NCBI RefSeq assembly: GCF_988243305.1 | Contig: NZ_OZ547136.1 | Strand: one strand, 5' to 3' | Length of the DNA stretch: 64,000 nt | Part shown: positions 37,652 to 47,645 of the stretch, piece by piece | Layout: every line of letters begins with the position of its first letter | Numbering within the stretch: the first letter of the stretch is position 1 | The notes under the pieces: generated by a model | The model's database searches: none | Told to the model about the DNA's origin: nothing | The model's input: only the letters and a program-made list of their open reading frames with translations | Position numbers and translations under genes: made by a program

Positions 37652-39616
37652 ATGTCCTTAAAAGGTCTTCGCTTTACGCTGGAGGTTGACGGCCAGGAGC
37701 CGGACACCTTTGCAGTGGTGAATTTCAGGTTAATCCAGAACCAGTCATATCCGTTTGTGATGAGTGTGGATGTTGCCAGCGACTCTTTTATGCAGACGGC
37801 GGAGATGCTGCTGGAGAAGAAGGCGACACTGACCATCTGGCAGGGCGCAGTGGCGCAGCGTTATGTCACCGGCGTGGTGGCGGGTTTTGGCATGCAGGAG
37901 AATAACGGCTGGCAGATGCGTTATCACCTGCGTATTGAGCCGCCGTTATGGCGGTGCGGGCTGCGGCAGAACTTTCGTATCTTCCAGCAGCAGGATATCC
38001 GGACGATATCGGCCACGTTACTGAACGAGAACGGCGTCACGGAGTGGACGCCGCTGTTTTATGAGGACCATCCGGCGCGGGAGTTCTGTGTCCAGTACGG
38101 AGAGAGCGACCTGGCGTTTCTGTCCCGGCTGTGGGCGGAGGAGGGAATTTTCTTCTTTGAGCGGTTTGCGGCGGACAGTCCGGAGCAGAAGCTGACGCTG
38201 TGCGACGATGTGGCGGGGCTGTCACAGGCGGGGGAGTTTCCGTTTAACCCGGACACATCGGCAGGAGCGGAGACGGAGTGTGTCAGTATGTTCCGTTATG
38301 AGGCGCATGTCCGCCCGTCATCGGTGCAGAGCCAGGATTACACGTTTAAGGTGCCGGACTGGCCGGGGATGTATGAGCAGCAGGGTGAGAACCTGAACGG
38401 ACAGCTGGCGCAGTATGAGATATTTGATTATCCGGGAAGGTACAAGGATGAACAGCACGGCAAGGATTTCACGCTGTACCGGATGGAGAGCCTGCGCAGT
38501 GATGCGGAAAAGGCCACAGGGCAGAGTAATTCACCGAAGCTGTGGCCGGGAACGCGGTTTACGCTGACGGGGCATCCGCAGAAGATGCTGAACCGTGAAT
38601 GGCAGGTGGTACAGAGCATACTGTCAGGAAGCCAGCCGCAGGCGCTGCACGGCAGCCAGGGGAGAGGAACCACGCTGGGCAATCAGTTAGAGGTGATACC
38701 GGCGGACCGGACGTGGCGTCCACGGCTGCAAAGCAAACCGAAGGTGGACGGGCCACAGAGCGCCATTGTCACCGGTCCTGCGGGAGAGGAAATCTTCTGC
38801 GACGAACACGGACGTGTGCGAGTGCAGTTTCACTGGGACAGGTATAACCCGGCAACGGAGGCGAGTTCGTGCTGGGTGAGGGTGTCACAGGCGTGGGCGG
38901 GGCCGGGGTTCGGTAACCTGGCGATACCGCGGGTGGGCCAGGAGGTGATTGTTGATTTCCTGAACGGCGACCCGGACCAGCCGATAATCATGGGACGGAC
39001 ATACCATGAGGACAACCGTTCACCGGGGAGTCTGCCGGGGACGAAGACGCAGATGACGATACGGTCGAAGACCTATAAAGGTAGCGGATTTAACGAGCTG
39101 CGGTTTGAAGACGCCACCAGTAATGAGCAGGTGTATATCCATGCGCAGAAGAACATGGATACGGAGGTGCTCAACGACCGGACAACGGATGTGAAACATG
39201 ACCATACGGAAACCATCGGTAACAACCAGAAGATAACGGTGGTGAAGGGCCAGACGGTGAATGTGGGGAGCAAAAAGGAAGGTGGTCATGACCAGAAAGT
39301 GACAGTGGCGAATGACCAGACCATTACGGTACAAAACGATCAGCGGCTGGATGTTACCCACGATCGTCACAAGGATGTAGGGAACGATCAAATCAGTAAG
39401 ATAATAGGAAAAGATACCGAAGAAGTCGTGAAATCCCAGGATATTAAAGTTGGAGAAGATTACAGCCTGACAGTTACCAACAGCCTCACCATTAAAGTCG
39501 GTGAATGCTTACTGAAAATGAATAAGGACGGTACTATCATTCTCAATGGTAAAAGTATCCAGATTGAAGGAAAAGATAAAATCAATATTTTCGGCGCAGA
39601 TATTGATCTGGATTAA
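37652..39616 (+). CDS. vgrG: VgrG spike protein (T6SS)
   Basis: 654-aa ORF; characteristic VgrG N-terminus (MSLKGLRFTLEVDG...FAVVNFRL...) and C-terminal Val/Gly-rich beta-helical repeats (VKGQTVNVG..., TVQNDQRLDV...). Confidence 0.9.
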   Translation: MSLKGLRFTLEVDGQEPDTFAVVNFRLIQNQSYPFVMSVDVASDSFMQTAEMLLEKKATLTIWQGAVAQRYVTGVVAGFGMQENNGWQMRYHLRIEPPLWRCGLRQNFRIFQQQDIRTISATLLNENGVTEWTPLFYEDHPAREFCVQYGESDLAFLSRLWAEEGIFFFERFAADSPEQKLTLCDDVAGLSQAGEFPFNPDTSAGAETECVSMFRYEAHVRPSSVQSQDYTFKVPDWPGMYEQQGENLNGQLAQYEIFDYPGRYKDEQHGKDFTLYRMESLRSDAEKATGQSNSPKLWPGTRFTLTGHPQKMLNREWQVVQSILSGSQPQALHGSQGRGTTLGNQLEVIPADRTWRPRLQSKPKVDGPQSAIVTGPAGEEIFCDEHGRVRVQFHWDRYNPATEASSCWVRVSQAWAGPGFGNLAIPRVGQEVIVDFLNGDPDQPIIMGRTYHEDNRSPGSLPGTKTQMTIRSKTYKGSGFNELRFEDATSNEQVYIHAQKNMDTEVLNDRTTDVKHDHTETIGNNQKITVVKGQTVNVGSKKEGGHDQKVTVANDQTITVQNDQRLDVTHDRHKDVGNDQISKIIGKDTEEVVKSQDIKVGEDYSLTVTNSLTIKVGECLLKMNKDGTIILNGKSIQIEGKDKINIFGADIDLD

Positions 39617-39631
39617 TCTGGAGAAATTAAC

Positions 39632-40573
39632 ATGAATATTGAAAATGAAACTGGTTTTCCTCACTTTCAGTTCGAAAAAGTGGGATATTATGGTGAGTTA
39701 TTCACAGTAGTGGTAGTTAATCAGACATTTGATTTTTCATATAGCGGCGGTCTCTGTCTGATTGCGGATGAGCAGCGACTGCCACTGATGACCGACTCCT
39801 GGTACGGCGAACCGGAAAGCAGCAGTCTTAAAACAGCAACCGATTTGGTTTGCAGAAAAGTCAGGGCAGATGTTTTATTAAATGGACACGCATGGCATGC
39901 CACCGGGGAAACCACTCGATGGCAGGCCAGTTTACAGGTGGGTAATCTTCAGCGCCAATTTGATATATGTGGCCCTTGCCAATGGCAATATATATCTAAC
40001 CGCTGGCAACTTAGCGAACCTGAATTAACTGATCGGGTACTGTTACGCCATGAACTGGCGTCAGCCAGTGAATTTAATCCTGTAGGCATTGTTATTCCCT
40101 CCCTGATAACGCTTGGCGATAAATCGCCCTGTCCAGCTCCACAGTTATCTGCCTCACCAGGAGCTATTTGCCGTAGCTGGCCTTCACGATTGCGCTATGC
40201 CAGAGGTTTTACAGAACAGTGGCAAAAGACTGTTCAACCTTTTTATCCAGATGAATTCGATTTTGCATTCATGAATTATTCTCCACCAGAACAACAATAC
40301 GATGGTTATTTAATTGGCAATGAAAAAATTATATTGAACGGCCTGTTACCTTCTAAAATGGAACAAACTTGTTTCCTTCCAGATATTAGACTATTGGCGT
40401 ATTTGTTTTACCGCTCTGATAAAAACGTAGAACTGCGCCCATTGTTGGCTGACACACTGACCATCCACACAGACGATGAGCAACTAACACTACTCTGGCG
40501 CTTAACGCTCCCCGTGGATTCTCTTCCACAACGTATTGTTTTGACGACGGAGCAGAGGGGACCTCATGGCTGA
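39632..40573 (+). CDS. candidate T6SS adaptor/chaperone (DUF2169-like by position and size)
   Basis: 313-aa ORF between vgrG and a PAAR-like effector, overlapping the effector start by 8 nt; family assignment rests on synteny, not on a recognised motif. Confidence 0.5.
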   Translation: MNIENETGFPHFQFEKVGYYGELFTVVVVNQTFDFSYSGGLCLIADEQRLPLMTDSWYGEPESSSLKTATDLVCRKVRADVLLNGHAWHATGETTRWQASLQVGNLQRQFDICGPCQWQYISNRWQLSEPELTDRVLLRHELASASEFNPVGIVIPSLITLGDKSPCPAPQLSASPGAICRSWPSRLRYARGFTEQWQKTVQPFYPDEFDFAFMNYSPPEQQYDGYLIGNEKIILNGLLPSKMEQTCFLPDIRLLAYLFYRSDKNVELRPLLADTLTIHTDDEQLTLLWRLTLPVDSLPQRIVLTTEQRGPHG

Positions 40574-41699
40574 AAATCATATTGGTTGTCGTGAATCGAA
40601 GTACGTTGCGATATGTATTGCGCCTGATGTCTGCAAGGTTGGTGATGCGATAGTGCCGTTTGACAGCTTTCAGAACCTGACACATGAGAAAATTTATATC
40701 AGCAATGTCAGGGCACGGGGCAATCCAATACTGACCGTGGACTGTATTATTGCAGGTACACGAAGTAATGCCGGGAAAGGTGTCAGTTCTGGCACCAGTC
40801 TGGGCAGCGGTGACTGCCGGATACTGACAGGCGTGGATCATATAAAGTGCAAGGGAAAGCCGGTAGCCAGGAATCTTTCGCTGGTTGCCATGAATAATGA
40901 TAATACTGTTGGAAAACTGTATACCCAGACAAACCCGCCAAATCAGATAATACCTGTTAAAGAATCATCGCTTTGGGCCAAGTATCTGGAACTGCAAATA
41001 CAACAGCAAGAGTTTGAGCTTGAGTCCAAAAAGCAAGAAGCAGATGCAATGATAGGATTAGGCAAGGCATTTATTAATGGCTGGTATATGTTGGGTGCAT
41101 TGATTGCCAAAGGTCAGATGCAAAATGACATTGCCCAAATGGAAAGTAATATTGCTCTGGCGAGAGGGTTGGGGATGGATACCCAAATTATGGAGCGGGC
41201 GAATGAGACCAACAGGGAGGTAATGGAAACTATTGATCCTAGAGAGCCATTGTTGAAACCTGCCAATGAAACCCAAGCAATGGCGATGGAGGTTGAGCCA
41301 TGGCTGGAACTTATGACCGGGGTTGGAGCACTGGTGAAAGGTTTGGTCAAGTTTTCAGCGAAGTTTGCAATAAAATCGGTTGGCAGAATGGGGAGGAGCG
41401 GTGCTAAAATTGTGCTGGATGCAAATGGATTGCCTATTCCTGTTCCTCCAAGCGTTGGCGCTGCGGGAAGAGTTCCGAGAGTATTACAAACTGGAGGTAA
41501 TACTCTTGAGGCAAGAACTGCCAGGGAGTTAAATGAATTTTTTGGTAAAAATATTAACAGGAGAGAATGGGGGAAAGCTTTAGAAAAGTTGAAAAAAGAT
41601 TTACGCTTACGAGGTGATCACCATGGTCGAATACTTGATAATGGTGATTATATTGATGACTCAGGAAATATTTTAGGAAACATAGAAGATTATTTATGA
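40566..41699 (+). CDS. candidate T6SS effector with N-terminal PAAR-like (DUF4150-type) domain and unassigned C-terminal domain
   Basis: 377-aa ORF; N-terminal Cys-containing module (VAICIAPDVCKVGDAIVPF...GKPVARNLSLVAMNNDNTVG); helical linker; divergent C-terminal ~110 aa; AT-rich. Confidence 0.6.
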   Translation: MAENHIGCRESKYVAICIAPDVCKVGDAIVPFDSFQNLTHEKIYISNVRARGNPILTVDCIIAGTRSNAGKGVSSGTSLGSGDCRILTGVDHIKCKGKPVARNLSLVAMNNDNTVGKLYTQTNPPNQIIPVKESSLWAKYLELQIQQQEFELESKKQEADAMIGLGKAFINGWYMLGALIAKGQMQNDIAQMESNIALARGLGMDTQIMERANETNREVMETIDPREPLLKPANETQAMAMEVEPWLELMTGVGALVKGLVKFSAKFAIKSVGRMGRSGAKIVLDANGLPIPVPPSVGAAGRVPRVLQTGGNTLEARTARELNEFFGKNINRREWGKALEKLKKDLRLRGDHHGRILDNGDYIDDSGNILGNIEDYL

Positions 41700-42175
41700 T
41701 TAAGAATATACAATCAAGGCTTACCCCGATATCTCATGAATATCCAAGTTGTGATGAGTGCTATGCTAGCCTCTTGATTTACACAGGTAATACTCACCCT
41801 AATGAAATAAGTATTCACTTAGAACTTGAGCCAACATCAATTAATATAAAAGGAGATGAAATTATTACTCTATCGGGAAAGAAAAGATATGCAAAAAATT
41901 CATATTGGATGCTCTCGTCAGAAAATCTAGTGAACTCGAAAGATATTCGAGAACATCTGGATTGGCTACTTCACAAACTTGGACCTAAATCATCAAATAT
42001 TGCAAAATTGCAAGCATTAGAAAATATTTCAATGGGTATTGACTGTACCTGGAGATCATTGAATTGGCACGGTGGGCCAACTTTATGGCCTGAGCAGATG
42101 AAAATAATGGCTAATCTTGGATTGGAGTGTTCATTTGATATTTATTTCGTCGGCAATGAAGATGGCAATCTTTAA
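41696..42175 (+). CDS. candidate cognate immunity protein (cytoplasmic)
   Basis: 159-aa ORF, ATGA overlap with effector stop, no signal peptide, AT-rich; role inferred from position only. Confidence 0.45.
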   Translation: MIKNIQSRLTPISHEYPSCDECYASLLIYTGNTHPNEISIHLELEPTSINIKGDEIITLSGKKRYAKNSYWMLSSENLVNSKDIREHLDWLLHKLGPKSSNIAKLQALENISMGIDCTWRSLNWHGGPTLWPEQMKIMANLGLECSFDIYFVGNEDGNL

Positions 42176-42288: not shown

Positions 42289-43580
42289 CAGGGAAAGATC
42301 ACGTAACGCTGCTTTTTTGTACTAAATAATTCGCATTTTATGTTTAAAAATTGAGATATTCCTCATTACCTGAAGCTGTTTTTTATTGAGTATACATGAT
42401 CAAATACTCCTTACATAATTAAGGAGAACACAATGGAACTTAAAAAATTGATGGAACATATTTCTATTATCCCCGATTACAGACAAGCCTGGAAAGTGGA
42501 GCATAAATTGTCGGATATTCTACTGTTGACTATTTGTGCCGTTATTTCTGGTGCAGAAGGCTGGGAAGATATAGAGGATTTTGGGGAAACACATCTCGAT
42601 TTTTTAAAACAATACGGTTATTTTGAAAATGGTATTCCTGTTCACGATACCATCGCCAGAGTTGTATCCTGTATCAGTCCTGCAAAATTTCACGAGTGCT
42701 TTATTAACTGGATGCGAGATTGCCATACTTCAGATGATAAAGACGTCATCACAATTGATGGAAAAACGCTCCGGCACTCTTATGACAAGAGTCGCCGCAG
42801 GGGAGCGATTCATGTCATTAGTGCGTTCTCAACAATGCACAGCCTGGTCATCGGACAGATCAAGACGGATGAGAAATCCAATGAGATTACAGCTATCCCA
42901 GAACTTCTTAACATGCTGGATATTAAAGGAAAAATCATCACAACTGATGCGATGGGTTGCCAGAAAGATATTGCAGAGAAGATACAAAAACAGGGAGGTG
43001 ATTATTTATTCGCTGTAAAAGGAAACCAGGGGCGGCTAAATAAAGCCTTCGAGGAAAAATTTCCGCTGAAAGAATTAAATAATCCAGAGCATGACAGTTA
43101 CGCAATTAGTGAAAAGAGTCACGGCAGAGAAGAAATCCGTCTTCACATTGTTTGCGATGTCCCTGATGAACTTATTGATTTCACGTTTGAATGGAAAGGT
43201 CTGAAGAAATTATGCGTGACAGTCTCCTTTCGGTCAATAATAGCAGAACAAAAGAAAGAGCCAGAAATGACGGTCAGATATTATATCAGTTCTGCTGATT
43301 TAACCGCAGAGAAGTTCGCCACAGCAATCCGAAACCACTGGCACGTGGAGAATAAGCTGCACTGGCGTCTGGACGTGGTAATGAATGAAGACGACTGCAA
43401 AATAAGAAGAGGAAATGCCGCAGAATTATTTTCAGGGATACGGCACATCGCTATTAATATTTTAACGAATGATAAGGTATTCAAGGCAGGGTTAAGATGT
43501 AAGATGCGAAAAGCAGCCATGGACAGAAACTACCTGGCGTCAGTCCTTGCTGGGAGCGGGCTTTCGTAATCTTGCCCTGG
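42289..43580 (+). mobile_element. H-repeat element (ISAs1-family), intact copy
   Basis: About 1.3 kb bounded by imperfect terminal inverted repeats (left CCAGGGAAAGATCACG, right CGTAATCTTGCCCTGG) enclosing one 378-aa transposase ORF. Confidence 0.8.
42433..43569 (+). CDS. H-repeat-associated protein / ISAs1-family transposase (YdcC/YhhI-like)
   Basis: 378-aa [35 protein letters not shown]... matching recalled E. coli H-repeat proteins. Confidence 0.88.
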
Positions 43581-43916
43581 CAGGAGCATAAGACGACGGG
43601 GAACCATGTCAGCCTGGTGGAGGGAAAGCACAGTCTGGAGGTGAAAGGCGATCTGGCGAGGAAGGTGAGTGGCACGCTGGGGATAAAGGTGGACGGGGAT
43701 ATCGTGCTGGAGAGCTGCAGCCGGATAAGCCTGAAGGTGGGCGGTTCGTTTATCGTTATTCAGTCGGGCGGTGTGGATATAGTGGGGCCGAAGATAAATC
43801 TTAATGGTGGGGGGAGTCCGGGGACACCGGTACCGACACTGCAACCCACTGTCCTGAACACTTTAGTCACTAATGATACGGATAGTAATACTGATGATGA
43901 TATCGGTAATGATTAG
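43581..43916 (+). pseudogene. vgrG 3'-terminal remnant
   Basis: GC-rich frame encoding a VgrG C-terminal beta-helix tail (VSLVEGKHSLEVKGDLARKVSGTLGIKVDGDIVLES...GGVDIVGPKINLNGGGSPG) begins directly at the H-repeat right end with no ATG; table call uses a TTG inside the IR. Confidence 0.8.
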
Positions 43917-44087
43917 ACCAGAGTGAAGTTCATGTTCTCGTAGCGGGATAATCATTCAGATAAAGATAACGGATGACGGTAGTAATAATAATACAATAAT
44001 ACTGTGATTTTCTGCTTTCTAAGCAGAGATGCTCTGTGAATGAATAATTCATACTCGTTACATGTTTTATAATCTTAATAAGGACTA

Positions 44088-46166
44088 TTGATAATGATAA
44101 TCAGCCCTCCAATATTGCATGCGCATATAGACACTGAAAAAGACTCTGACTGGGTAAACAGAATGATGTCTGTTGATCCAGAGAGAAATTTCCCAATGAA
44201 TAGCGGTCGTTCTTGGCATGGTGGAGTTCATTTGAACGGCAATCTGTCAGAGACTGTTAGGTGTATTGCCGATGGGAAGGTTATTTCAATACGCCAGCCA
44301 GAACCAGCGAAAAATACAGTTCCCCCGTTAAATTATAACGGAGTTACGGATAAAGGCTATGTTCTGATAAAACATGAAACAGAAATCGGTAGTGGAGAAG
44401 AGGGTAAAATCGTCTATTACTCATTATATATGCACCTGAGAAGCATTGACAGTAATGTGCAGCCGGGAAACACGCTATACCGGAAAGAACCGGTTGGTGC
44501 AGCAGGGATGGTGGACGGACAGAACGCCTTTCATTTTCAGATTTTTTGTGATGATGAAAACATTCAGAAAATCACAGGAAGAATATCACCGGAAACAGAC
44601 CTGAATAAAGATGGACGAACTAATGTGGTTTACGGTGATAGTCATTTTTATCTCCCTACCGGAACACCGATTTATGGGGACATGCCGGAAGAAAACTCGC
44701 TTGCGAACAACAGTCCGGTACAAAGAACCAGCGTGCCATTGTATGTCACAATGAGTTTTGATAAAGGCAATTGTACGATGGTGACGCGTCAGCAGCATGA
44801 AGTGCTGAGTGATTCCTATACTGAAGTAGGTTCTCCCTTGATTAATGCTGATGGTAAGGATTATGAATACAATCTCTATTCCTACGCGCTGCAACTCTAT
44901 CCGAAAAGCCCAAGTGCCGGTTATGAGATGCTGCGTTTTGGTCGGGTTGTTAATACAGAATATGAAGAATTAGTCCCGGCGGATGCGCCGCTGTGGAGAA
45001 CAATCAATACGCCACAGGGTAAAGGCGTTGTTAACTTAGGGGCGAGAGATATCAGGGTTTACAGCGACGGTGATTTTCCACACTGGACAGGGTGGAAACT
45101 GGTGAACGATGATGCGGACACCAACAGCCAGTGCAATTCACCAACAATCCTGTGTACAACCCGCAATGACCTAAGTCGGATGATTTGTCATTTTCCGCTA
45201 GAATGGGACAGCGCCACCGTGGAATCACGGTTTGAGTGGCTGAAATCACCCAATGACGTATTGAGTAAGCCGATGACAGAGCCTGACCTGGATTTGCTGA
45301 TAGAACACTGTAAGGCGCTTTGTTTGGTAGAGAATCCGTTACCTGCCAGGCGTGTATGGCATTTTGATCCCAGGCAGTTTATTGCACATTTCAGGAAATG
45401 TGGATGGTTAGGAGAAAATGATATTATAAGTGTGGTAAGACGTTATCAAAATGCTTATCCCATGACATCAGAACTTACAAGACCATTAAGTAAAGACACT
45501 CTAATTGAGCGGATTACTAGCCAAGGACAAAATAGCAGTGGTGAGATGATAAGACCTGCAGGGTTGAAAAATGAACTGTCAAAGTCACTAAGGAAGTACT
45601 TAATTACAACCCCATTGCGGATTGCGCATTATTTCGGTCAGATGGCGAGAGAAACAGGCAGATTTTCGTCTTTTATAGAGAATGGTGATTTGAGTTATTT
45701 TGATATGTATGAGCCAGGAACAGAACAGGGACTTAAGCTTGGAAATAATGTTGTTGGTGATGGTGCAAGATTTAAAGGCAGAGGTACCATACATCTAACT
45801 GGTCGTGAGAATTATAGAAATTATGGAAAGTATAGAAATCCGTCAGATGATGATTTTTTTACTACAGGACCCAATAACCAACTCCCAGTTGAAAATGCCT
45901 ATTTTTCTTGCGATGCCGGGGGATACTTTTGGGCAAGTAAGCAAAAATACATAATGGTAAGCCATCGATTGACACCTAGTGGTAGTTTAGGCGTTAATTA
46001 TTGGGCGGATAAAGGATGTAGTTTGTCACATGCCAGAGAAGTTACACGGCGAATAAACCCAGCAGCAGATGGCTTCGATTTAGTACGTTGGCCAGCATTT
46101 GAGCATTCTTGGTATGTATTGAATGATGAAATAACACCTCCACTTAATTACATAAGGATTGTTTAA
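44088..46166 (+). CDS. predicted two-domain peptidoglycan hydrolase: M23/LytM-like N-terminal domain plus GH19-like (lysozyme/chitinase-family) C-terminal domain; candidate T6SS cargo effector
   Basis: 692-aa AT-rich ORF. N-terminal region follows the M23 motif order (WHGGVHL, ADGKVISI, GYVLIKHE, YYSLYMHL, NAFHFQIF). C-terminal region carries GH19 hallmarks (YFGQMARETGRF and KGRGTIHLTGRENYRNYG). Start codon uncertain. Confidence 0.6.
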   Translation: MIMIISPPILHAHIDTEKDSDWVNRMMSVDPERNFPMNSGRSWHGGVHLNGNLSETVRCIADGKVISIRQPEPAKNTVPPLNYNGVTDKGYVLIKHETEIGSGEEGKIVYYSLYMHLRSIDSNVQPGNTLYRKEPVGAAGMVDGQNAFHFQIFCDDENIQKITGRISPETDLNKDGRTNVVYGDSHFYLPTGTPIYGDMPEENSLANNSPVQRTSVPLYVTMSFDKGNCTMVTRQQHEVLSDSYTEVGSPLINADGKDYEYNLYSYALQLYPKSPSAGYEMLRFGRVVNTEYEELVPADAPLWRTINTPQGKGVVNLGARDIRVYSDGDFPHWTGWKLVNDDADTNSQCNSPTILCTTRNDLSRMICHFPLEWDSATVESRFEWLKSPNDVLSKPMTEPDLDLLIEHCKALCLVENPLPARRVWHFDPRQFIAHFRKCGWLGENDIISVVRRYQNAYPMTSELTRPLSKDTLIERITSQGQNSSGEMIRPAGLKNELSKSLRKYLITTPLRIAHYFGQMARETGRFSSFIENGDLSYFDMYEPGTEQGLKLGNNVVGDGARFKGRGTIHLTGRENYRNYGKYRNPSDDDFFTTGPNNQLPVENAYFSCDAGGYFWASKQKYIMVSHRLTPSGSLGVNYWADKGCSLSHAREVTRRINPAADGFDLVRWPAFEHSWYVLNDEITPPLNYIRIV

Positions 46167-46170
46167 AACA

Positions 46171-46674
46171 ATGAATTTTAAAAAAACAATAATCACTTCG
46201 GTAGGTTTGATATTTATTTCATTCTCTTTTGTGGCAGAGTGCTCTCAACTCAAAAATTTGAATAATTACTCAGTGATGCTTTGTGGAAAAGTGTCAAGTA
46301 ATATCCTTGATGATATTGGTGGTTATAAAGAAAGAGATAAAAAATCCGAAATGGTAGATTTACTTATATTAATTAGTAATGACGAGCCTATCGGTGTTTC
46401 TGAGACCAAAGTGATTTCTAATGGTAAAATATATTTTAAGGGGGAAAGTACTATGAACTTGGATGCCTCATTCATTATGACAATAAATGGTGGAGTTCAT
46501 ACTGACACTGTCACTTATATATCAAAGAAGAATAAAATTATCGGGGGCTACTTTTATAATAATGAGAGTAAAACTGATAAGCTTAAGGAAGTATATATCT
46601 CAAACACAGGAACTGTATATCATATAAATATTGAAAGTGTCAGCGATGATAAATGTCTTGATAAATTTAAGTAA
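46171..46674 (+). CDS. candidate periplasmic immunity protein (signal peptide)
   Basis: 167-aa ORF from ATG 46171 (MNFKKTIITSVGLIFISFSFVAECSQ...), 4 nt after the hydrolase stop; cleavable Sec-type signal; very AT-rich. Confidence 0.45.
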   Translation: MNFKKTIITSVGLIFISFSFVAECSQLKNLNNYSVMLCGKVSSNILDDIGGYKERDKKSEMVDLLILISNDEPIGVSETKVISNGKIYFKGESTMNLDASFIMTINGGVHTDTVTYISKKNKIIGGYFYNNESKTDKLKEVYISNTGTVYHINIESVSDDKCLDKFK

Positions 46675-46942
46675 CGATAAGGCAAGGATGATTGATTGGG
46701 TTTAGTTAAGTTTCGAGAACAAATTTCCGCGGCAGAGAGTATAAATGTAGGGGCAAGAATGCTAAAATCGTGAAGTGCACCACAACTATAATTCCAGTTT
46801 ACTTTGTTTATTTGATTGTAATTTAACCATTAAATGATTAGGTTTTTTAGAAAAGGACGTCTGATGAATGTTTAAATTAATTTTGAATACATTTCAATTA
46901 TTTTGTTGTATGTTGGCAAGGTCAAATAAGACATAATTTAAT

Positions 46943-47645
46943 GGCAGGGAAAGATCATCGTAAGTACACTTTTTGTACTAAATAATTTGCATTTTATGTT
47001 TAAAAATTGAGATATTCCTCATCACCTGAAGCTGTTTTTTATTACTTATATATGATCAAATACTCCTTACATAAATAAGGAGAACAAAATGGAACTTAAA
47101 AAATTGATGGAACATATTTCTATTATCCCCGATTACAGACAAGCCTGGAAAGTGGAACATAAATTATCGGATATTCTACTGTTGACTATTTGTGCTGTTA
47201 TTTCTGGTGCAGAAGGATGGGAAGATATAGAGGATTTTGGGGAAACACATCTCGATTTTTTGAAGCAATATTGTGATTTTGATAATGGTATTCCTGTTCA
47301 CGATACCATTGCCAGAGTTGTATCCTGTATCAGTCCTGAAAAATTTCATGAGTGCTTTATTAACTGGATGCTTGACTGCCATTCTTCAGATGATAAAGAC
47401 GTCATTGCAATTGATGGAAAAACGCTCCGGTACTCTTATGACAAGAGTCGTCGCAAGGGAGCGATTCACGTTATTAGTGTGTTCTCAATAATGCACAGTC
47501 AGATTCCTTGGAAGATCAAGACGAATGAAAAAAACAATGAGATTACAGCTGTTTCTGAATTTCTTAACATAATGGGTATTAAAGGAAAAATAATTGCACC
47601 GATCCAATGTGATACCAGAAAGACATCGCTAAGAAGATAGCTATA
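46943..47645 (+). mobile_element. H-repeat element, 3'-truncated and degenerate copy
   Basis: Left end and first ~550 bp of transposase gene near-identical to the intact copy, then frameshifted (..[20 protein letters not shown]) and lost about 50 nt upstream of the cyclase gene 3' end. Confidence 0.8.
47089..47640 (+). pseudogene. truncated H-repeat transposase
   Basis: 183-aa ORF identical in N-terminus to the 378-aa transposase but terminating early after indels. Confidence 0.8.

Follow-up and report, generated by a model that had tools for sequence, protein, structure and literature searches.

The DNA considered here is a 64,000-nucleotide (nt) stretch of contig NZ_OZ547136.1 (assembly GCF_988243305.1), hereafter the window, and within it a two-gene module in a vgrG island between yncG and pptA of Escherichia coli. 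The first gene (44094..46166, + strand) encodes 690 residues plus a stop and fuses a WHIX-type loading module to a glycoside hydrolase domain of family 19 (GH19) type; RefSeq names the product 'M23 family metallopeptidase'. The second (46171..46674, +) encodes a 167-residue candidate periplasmic immunity protein. Upstream lies the remnant of the cognate vgrG (43580..43943, +), delimited by blastn against the PS10-3 locus (L001), and a complete insertion sequence (IS), ISEc1 of the ISAs1 family (42289..43582, +), abuts its break point; a degraded ISAs1-family copy (46940..47640, +) closes the module on the 3' side. The pair very probably represents a cargo effector of the WHIX/TseP class, carried by a type VI secretion system (T6SS) and armed with a GH19 toxin domain, together with its immunity gene.

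Both open reading frames (ORFs) can be extended to upstream TTG codons, giving 44088..46166 (+, 692 residues) and 46159..46674 (+, 171 residues). The ATG codons at 44094 and 46171 are preferred because AAGGA boxes lie 9 and 12 nt from them, against just 3 and 1 nt from the TTGs, because all effector homologues begin with MIISPPF, and because the RefSeq starts are identical. With these starts the genes are separated by 4 nt, as had been described in an earlier annotation made from the letters of the window (the sequence-only reading). The strong AT-richness reported there is real but graded: GC content is 42.8% across the effector gene, 39.5% in its GH19-encoding last third, 30.0% in the downstream ORF and 29.7% in the spacer that follows, compared with 48–49% in flanking housekeeping DNA. 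The effector gene occurs in 19 of 5,426 complete E. coli genomes, and the identical protein is found on 44 public E. coli contigs, again under the name 'M23 family metallopeptidase'. Both ORFs of the pair are intact and 98–99.9% identical to the copies in other strains.

The C-terminal domain, of the GH19 type seen in chitinase-like and endolysin-like enzymes, occupies approximately residues 491–690 (45564..46163, +). Its catalytic Glu pair, E520 and E529 (ARETGRFSSFIE; 45651..45680, +), is conserved at each position in 110 of the 111 diverse homologues of the effector on which all conservation counts given here are based. E520 lies in one GH19 hallmark motif, YFGQMARETGRF, and a second, KGRGTIHLTGRENYRNYG, spans residues 561–578, with G562-R563-G564, T569, N573 and Y574 conserved in at least 103 members. 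The domain contains both the general-acid and general-base glutamates and the [K/R]GRGxxQxT…NY signature of GH19 enzymes, with H at position 567 (HLT for QLT), where 92 members have Q and 16 have H. The Pfam family PF00182 (Glyco_hydro_19, 'Chitinase class I') is matched by eight members (E ≤ 1e-3), not by the effector sequence itself. A family profile searched against the PDB matches 40 GH19 entries, with endolysins and chitinases at E values from 1.7e-28 to 4e-10, and also retrieves 8XCL (2.2e-18), the C-terminal domain of TseP from Aeromonas dhakensis, a lysozyme whose E663A and E663D variants are inactive (Wang et al., eLife 2025, PMC11893102). The profile alignment pairs E520 and E529 with HES…SE of 8XCL, corresponding to TseP E655 and E663, and with HESGGFTRLQE of the SPN1S endolysin (4OK7). 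The effector consequently has a homologous C-domain with a Glu corresponding to E663, and the GH19-like half with a candidate catalytic Glu that the sequence-only reading had proposed is well supported.

The N-terminal WHIX-like module (approximately residues 1–440; 44094..45413, +) consists of an M23/LytM β core and an α/β region without a PDB match, and it ends in a conserved VWHFDP…FRKCGW motif. Within the core (residues 36–165; 44199..44588, +), the sequence WHGGVH (residues 41–46; 44214..44231, +) is the WHxxxH motif from which WHIX takes its name and aligns with W41–H46 of the WHIX prototype, Va01435. ADGKVISI (59–66), GYVLIKHE (88–95), YYSLYMHL (108–115) and NAFHFQIF (144–151) follow, in the M23/LytM order originally noticed. 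W41, H42, G44 and H46 are present in 109 of the 111 family members, and the same four residues together with H94, H114 and H147 in 108–111. The sole Pfam match of the effector is Peptidase_M23 (i-E 3.2e-4), covering residues 44–157 in the 692-residue numbering, equivalent to 42–155 in the 690-residue numbering; 45 of the 111 members match the same family at E ≤ 1e-3. An AlphaFold2 model built on the family alignment supports the fold, with a predicted local distance difference test score (pLDDT) of 95.9 and a predicted template modelling score (pTM) of 0.94. Profile, Pfam or fold searches were needed to make the M23 connection, because a phmmer search of residues 1–200 against the PDB returned only chance matches, nitrite reductases at E 0.3–1. 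The searches of each half, with inspection of catalytic residues, that had been suggested as a check support both folds.

To set the register of the metal site, the region was aligned with the N-terminal extension of WP_081934688.1, a genuine M23 domain; HGGVH corresponds to HKGVD, YMHL to YAHM and AFHFQ to HLHFE, and a lysostaphin sequence gave the same register. In this alignment, H147 is the second, zinc-ligating His of the M23 HxH motif and is retained, the first His has given way to A145, Q149 falls on the E/Q that normally comes after the motif, and H46 takes the place of the Asp ligand. The substitution of His for Asp at the metal site had been recognised correctly, but the companion claim of Gln in place of the second His stemmed from a register error, the lost residue being the first. 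The probable metal triad is H42/H46/H147, with H114 also kept. The first His of HxH is assigned a catalytic role in characterised M23 enzymes, and its position in this family is variably A, R, Q, K, E or G. The signature of active M23 enzymes (HxxxD and HxH, supplying three Zn ligands and two catalytic His) is absent from the effector, and a canonical active M23 enzyme was rejected on residue conservation and register, given the loss of the first HxH His and the replacement of Asp by His. A second, zinc-dependent activity like that of the TseP N-domain (TseP-N) is possible, as judged from the residues that remain: a His-His-His triad and one of the two catalytic His are kept, and the other is lost.

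WHIX is a bipartite domain that is sufficient for T6SS secretion and has been proposed to cap VgrG at its C-terminal tail (Fridman et al., PLoS Biol 2025, PMC12135965). Its region 1 corresponds to residues 31–126 of the prototype and its region 2 to residues 271–476 (PMC12135965). For comparison with the effector, the sequence of Va01435 (WP_005373349.1), a T6SS1 effector of Vibrio alginolyticus, was rebuilt from the authors' model file. BLASTP aligns the effector to residues 33–120 of the prototype (E 4e-8), and hhalign assigns the relationship a probability of 97.4%. The family hidden Markov model (HMM) matches Va01435 in two blocks, residues 26–122 (E 2.3e-16), which cover region 1, and residues 345–684 (E 5.3e-31), which span the GH19-like domain in full as well as two region 2 motifs, ICxFPxEWD and WHFxP. 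The most common C-terminal partner of WHIX is 'chitinase-like', found in 2,242 unique proteins (Table 1 of PMC12135965). The impression that this domain combination was undescribed is thus mistaken: WHIX with a chitinase-like/GH19 domain is the commonest published architecture and TseP has been characterised, so the M23 and GH19 fusion, as the prevailing arrangement of a T6SS effector class published in 2025, is no discovery. The suggestion of a binding role for a possibly non-catalytic M23 part, by contrast, agrees with the published loading role of WHIX (PMC12135965).

The effector belongs to a compact clade of that class, which numbers approximately 275 clusters when grouped at 50% identity (E < 1e-30) and is distributed over Enterobacterales and Betaproteobacteria. 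The clade is probably missing from the WHIX catalogue because its members lack an insert of ~145 residues present in the prototype and the catalogue was filtered by RPS-BLAST at E ≤ 1e-6 with at least 70% coverage of a 477-residue position-specific scoring matrix (PMC12135965). Some members are annotated 'M23 family metallopeptidase', but public databases misname many as 'hydroxyethylthiazole kinase', 'kinase' or 'putative membrane protein', errors that hide a large T6SS effector clade.

Genomic context in other bacteria places the family beside T6SS genes. The loci examined are from E. coli (two), Enterobacter, Pseudocitrobacter (two), Salmonella (two), Chromobacterium, Yersinia, Serratia, Photorhabdus, Achromobacter and Chitiniphilus. 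Among the 12 loci other than that in the window, which come from at least nine genera, 11 have a vgrG directly upstream of the homologue at a distance of 11–150 nt, and in the twelfth, from Photorhabdus (L013), two genes, a second family member and its small ORF, separate the vgrG from the homologue. A GH19-like C-domain or a variant of it is encoded in all of them, and a small ORF with a signal-peptide-like N-terminus is located downstream in 12 of 12. T6SS sheath genes adjoin the homologue in L003 and L010, and a gene for a ClpV-type ATPase does so in L009 and L012. The Photorhabdus locus (L013 790–6220) has two family members in tandem after one vgrG (728 and 702 residues); a small ORF comes after each, and that behind the first member encodes a DUF1240 protein. 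Across 268 collected relatives, the first 480 residues are conserved and the C-domain of 78 is not matched to that of the effector by phmmer; many of these 78 divergent domains are still GH19-like by consensus, and two carry DUF3289. By this pattern of sequence conservation, the effectors form a polymorphic toxin family. The proposal of a T6SS-delivered, peptidoglycan-targeting effector with a periplasmic immunity partner gains support from the vgrG context in 12 loci, from the candidate immunity gene, the few homologues of which always come next after the effector, and from the finding, discussed below, that no phage record has a full-length copy.

The VgrG proteins encoded upstream of family members share a short terminal motif. 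The 3' ends compared are those at L001 12335–12364, L003 7957–7986, L004 5744–5773 and L006 5735–5764, those of L008–L015, and the window at 43917–43943. All nine Enterobacterales VgrGs end in …FS (KFMFS in three cases, and KFLFS, YFLFS, RWLFS, RSSFS, KFFFS and RWQFS), and the betaproteobacterial tails are PFSE, PLSE and SLSR. The published Aeromonas VgrG4 tail is …KVSFSGR, and Awe1, its cargo, is neither bound nor delivered when VgrG4 lacks its last 14 residues (PMC12135965). By megablast, the 150-bp region that encodes the vgrG tail is found in 21 of 5,426 E. coli genomes, once in each and always beside the effector. Judging from these alignments, a tail of the form …ΦxFS could be a recognisable address tag for WHIX-type cargo.

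The 167-residue product of the downstream gene has a Sec-type signal peptide, with MNFKK preceding a hydrophobic core of 17 residues and a likely cleavage site at FVA|E, in accordance with the cleavable signal noted initially for an ORF directly downstream. Wherever a homologue of it was examined, its gene comes immediately after that of the effector, and the genes that adjoin published WHIX effectors mostly encode signal-peptide proteins (PMC12135965). Pfam and NCBIfam scans of the protein gave no match, and only nine matching clusters, from E. coli, Pseudocitrobacter and Salmonella, are present among 5.8 billion proteins. An immunity lipoprotein was considered and rejected: the Cys is preceded by K or E, and it is missing altogether from that position in the Salmonella homologue P0272.

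The cognate carrier of the effector is destroyed in this strain. Only the last 364 bp of vgrG remain, and an NCBIfam scan of the effector, the immunity candidate and their neighbours found no family save a weak VgrG match on this remnant. Relative to PS10-3, a PAAR gene and ~1.8 kb from the 5' part of vgrG are absent, such that L001 9560–12000 has no counterpart in the window; the missing PAAR gene is the second of PS10-3. The remnant itself is interrupted by TAG in place of GAG at 43914–43916, which cuts off the last nine residues, ETRVKFMFS, still legible in frame after the stop (43917–43943). GAG is found in the 18 other E. coli copies that cover this position, and TAG only in the genome that matches the window, the near-identical NZ_CP148331.1. 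The sequence-only reading was right that a vgrG remnant lies upstream, but the loss of the VgrG body and of its effector-binding tail went unnoticed there. Loss of the PAAR gene and of most of vgrG looks like an IS-mediated deletion, to judge by its position beside ISEc1. Because this IS-linked deletion took the PAAR gene and most of vgrG and the TAG codon took the tail, the intact effector-immunity pair is probably an undeliverable orphan in this strain, unless another VgrG carries the effector.

The vgrG of PS10-3 is itself frameshifted. In one Salmonella enterica strain the orthologue of the effector is split into two ORFs (214 and 487 residues), and in another an IS precedes a truncated copy; in both loci (L006 5826–8507 and L007 6071–8507) the immunity homologue is intact and, as in E. 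coli, an ISAs1 transposase comes after it. This arrangement suggests that ISAs1 elements and the effector module move and decay as a unit. Between the original stop codon of vgrG and the effector gene, the 150-nt spacer contains a perfect hairpin, CTGCTT-TCT-AAGCAG (44012–44026), which is kept in PS10-3; a scan of 43500–47200 for promoters and terminators gave counts no higher than in shuffled controls. Just upstream, at 37652–42175 of the window, is a separate and apparently intact T6SS cargo module with a vgrG (654 residues), a DUF2169 accessory gene, a gene for a 377-residue PAAR-like protein whose C-terminal half has no family match, and a likely immunity gene, for a DUF4279 protein (159 residues, 35% GC).

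A scheme for the action of the effector can be drawn by analogy with published homologues. Residues 1 to ~440, the M23/LytM core with its WHxxxH motif and the region that has no solved relative, would constitute the loading module, binding the extreme C-terminal tail of the VgrG encoded upstream and being exported with it by the T6SS. Residues ~491–690 would act as a GH19-type hydrolase of the phage-endolysin/TseP-C kind, with E520 and E529 cutting the glycan strands of peptidoglycan in the periplasm of a rival cell. The 167-residue protein, by its position, signal peptide and co-occurrence, would be exported to the periplasm of the producer and neutralise the hydrolase there.

Several points weigh against this assignment. 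Membership in WHIX is by homology, without a listing in the catalogue: eight RefSeq accessions of the clade, including E. coli WP_000587243, WP_311207266 and Chromobacterium violaceum WP_011133579, are absent from the complete published WHIX tree file, in which six of six control accessions were found. Region 2 is matched only at prototype residues 345–476 of 271–476, HMMER having left 271–344, the second half of the split M23 fold, unaligned, and the prototype insert at 127–270 is absent from the effector. Placement of the N-domain in the same class as TseP-N is indirect and draws on the literature and on one shared AlphaFold database entry, A0A843SHU8, which is a full-length structural match of the effector model (TM 0.78) as well as a listed Foldseek match of TseP-N. 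The 167-residue candidate has no detectable similarity to the ORF downstream of a 53%-identical Enterobacter effector, and its AlphaFold2 model, built from seven sequences, is unusable (pLDDT 33). Secretion, VgrG binding, the choice of muramidase over chitinase specificity and the immunity function of the pair are, moreover, properties that we infer from these relationships.

Alternative functions have been weighed against the same data. Among solved structures, those nearest to the C-domain are GH19 endolysins of phages, and 'Pyocin R, lytic enzyme' appears once among the UniRef names of the family, features that would suit a lysis enzyme of a prophage or tailocin. A search of 50,697 phage records nonetheless found no full-length protein. 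None of the 336 matching records covers at least 80% of the effector, and the matches listed align with the C-terminal third, one of them extending back to residue 358 (358–682 overall), leaving the N-terminal WHIX module unmatched. With no holin, spanin or phage structural genes nearby and a vgrG upstream in every locus examined, an endolysin is extremely improbable, and the prophage version was rejected for want of a full-length copy among those phage records. A true chitinase, or an effector that acts on the chitin of fungi or other eukaryotes, is also very improbable, if slightly less so. The Pfam name and its eight member matches favour it, as do matches to plant and Streptomyces chitinases at 4e-10 to 1e-3, but they are far outscored by endolysins that cleave peptidoglycan and by TseP-C, which digests E. 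coli sacculi (PMC11893102). The partners of WHIX are almost all peptidoglycan enzymes (PMC12135965), and because the downstream protein carries a signal peptide, the target is expected to be bacterial and periplasmic.

Two further readings concern the activity of the module and the fate of the locus. In the first, already raised in the sequence-only reading, the protein would be a bifunctional peptidoglycan hydrolase, its M23-like module an active zinc amidase or endopeptidase and its GH19 domain a glycan-cleaving enzyme. TseP-N, AHA_1849-N and PSPTO_5204-N release tri- and tetrapeptides from sacculi in a Zn- and His-dependent manner (PMC11893102), and the near-invariance of H42, H46, H114 and H147 (108–111 of 111 members) is unusual for a purely structural LytM domain. 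The first HxH His is nonetheless A145, at a variable position, the WHIX domain of Awe1 alone is non-toxic in the E. coli periplasm (PMC12135965), and the TseP histidines may serve loading or folding, because most TseP His mutants also lost T6SS assembly (PMC11893102). Bifunctionality is, on this balance, rather unlikely. The other reading, that the pair is a dead relic unused for attack in this strain and kept at most for immunity against kin that fire the toxin, is somewhat more probable than its opposite. It is favoured by the deletion beside ISEc1, by the TAG codon that removes a tail needed for loading in homologous systems, by the occurrence of the tail DNA just once in the near-identical genome NZ_CP148331.1, and by the IS remnants on both sides of the module and the frameshifted vgrG of PS10-3. 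Against it, both ORFs are intact and closely similar to those in other strains, and the lost carrier could be replaced by another VgrG with a comparable …FS tail, such as one like the E. coli L012 VgrG, which ends in KFFFS; a megablast search for the tail would miss such a gene. The relic reading describes the state of the locus in one strain rather than the identity of the protein and is therefore compatible with the preferred assignment of the pair as WHIX/TseP-class cargo with its immunity gene.

The locus adds to two recent descriptions of this class. The absence of the clade from the WHIX catalogue and the shared VgrG tail are details beyond those reports (PMC12135965, PMC11893102). At the core of the loading module, the M23/LytM fold has kept its metal site nearly whole, a finding relevant to the dispute on whether this module serves purely for loading or has enzymatic activity as well: TseP-N points to activity, and the loss of one catalytic His and the lack of toxicity of Awe1's WHIX domain point the other way. 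The main text of the WHIX report mentions neither zinc, histidine nor metallopeptidase, with LytM confined to its reference list (PMC12135965). One tentative and so far doubtful proposal would reconcile the two descriptions, with the WHIX 'secretion domain' and the TseP-N 'zinc amidase' as one repurposed M23/LytM module, the peptide-binding groove and retained three-His metal site of which may clamp the VgrG …Φ-x-F-S tail as a mimic of substrate or product. If true, a large effector class would owe its adaptor-free loading socket to a degenerate cell-wall peptidase, the short motif at the tail would act as an address tag that can be predicted, such that a single nonsense codon, as here, strands an effector, and the compact clade with its continuous M23 fold would be the simplest version of the module. 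VgrG tails that end in …FS could serve to predict carrier-cargo pairs, and the locus is an example of IS activity and point mutation orphaning an intact toxin-antidote pair.

Comparison with characterised systems brings out which features of the effector are shared and which are particular to its clade. Va01435 has its WHxxxH motif at the same residue numbers (W41–H46), the same order of WHIX region 1, region 2 (…PxxW… to WHxxP) and GH19-like C-domain, the same E-x8-E pair and GRGxxQ/H-xT…NY signature in that domain, and likewise a downstream immunity gene. The two proteins are ~25% identical, and the M23-like fold is split by the insert in Va01435 and continuous in the effector; the MIISPPF N-terminus is specific to the clade of the effector. 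Among WHIX effectors of the 'double-blade' subclass II is Awe1 of Aeromonas jandaei (PMC12135965), which uses its WHIX module to bind the C-terminal 11–14 residues of its VgrG, a tail with the same F-S core as those compared above. Signal peptides are present on the immunity proteins of Awe1, as on the 167-residue candidate, but in Awe1 WHIX is preceded by an additional toxic domain of canonical M23 type, and a second immunity gene lies upstream, whereas the effector begins directly with WHIX, the subclass I layout, and has one downstream immunity candidate.

TseP resembles the effector in having an upstream VgrG as carrier and an adjoining immunity gene. Both of its domains bind VgrG2 and both are inhibited by TsiP (PMC11893102). 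The Zn-dependent amidase of its N-domain, which was modelled on 3SLU, needs H19, H23, H109, H339, H359 and E539, with H19 and H23 forming an HxxxH pair (PMC11893102). That amidase activity was demonstrated by assay, whereas the effector is known here from its sequence. At 845 residues, TseP is 155 residues longer, and TseP-C, the structure of which is titled 'EF-hand domain-containing protein' (8XCL), has long insertions relative to the GH19 domain of the effector (220 compared with ~185 aligned residues). A search with the 8XCL sequence for full-length TseP returned short GH19 proteins, the best 55% identical, and no TseP; representatives of 844–846 residues in the family were considered and rejected as TseP.

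The GH19 phage endolysins compared (PWe2 9MS7, SPN1S 4OK7 and Pseudomonas 9EOI/8P8E) are single-domain proteins of ~180–220 residues encoded in lysis cassettes, in contrast to the GH19 domain here, which forms the C-terminal third of a T6SS cargo protein; 9MS7 and 4OK7 nonetheless share its Glu-x8-Glu pair and GRGxxQxT/NY motifs. For the N-terminal module, the known LytM/M23 proteins considered were the degenerate EnvC, NlpD and SpoIIQ and the active LytM, lysostaphin and ShyA. EnvC and NlpD are not known to retain the metal ligands. Like EnvC and SpoIIQ, the module of the effector is probably used for protein binding, but it retains H42, H46 (in place of Asp), H147 and H114 and is without only the first His of the HxH motif.

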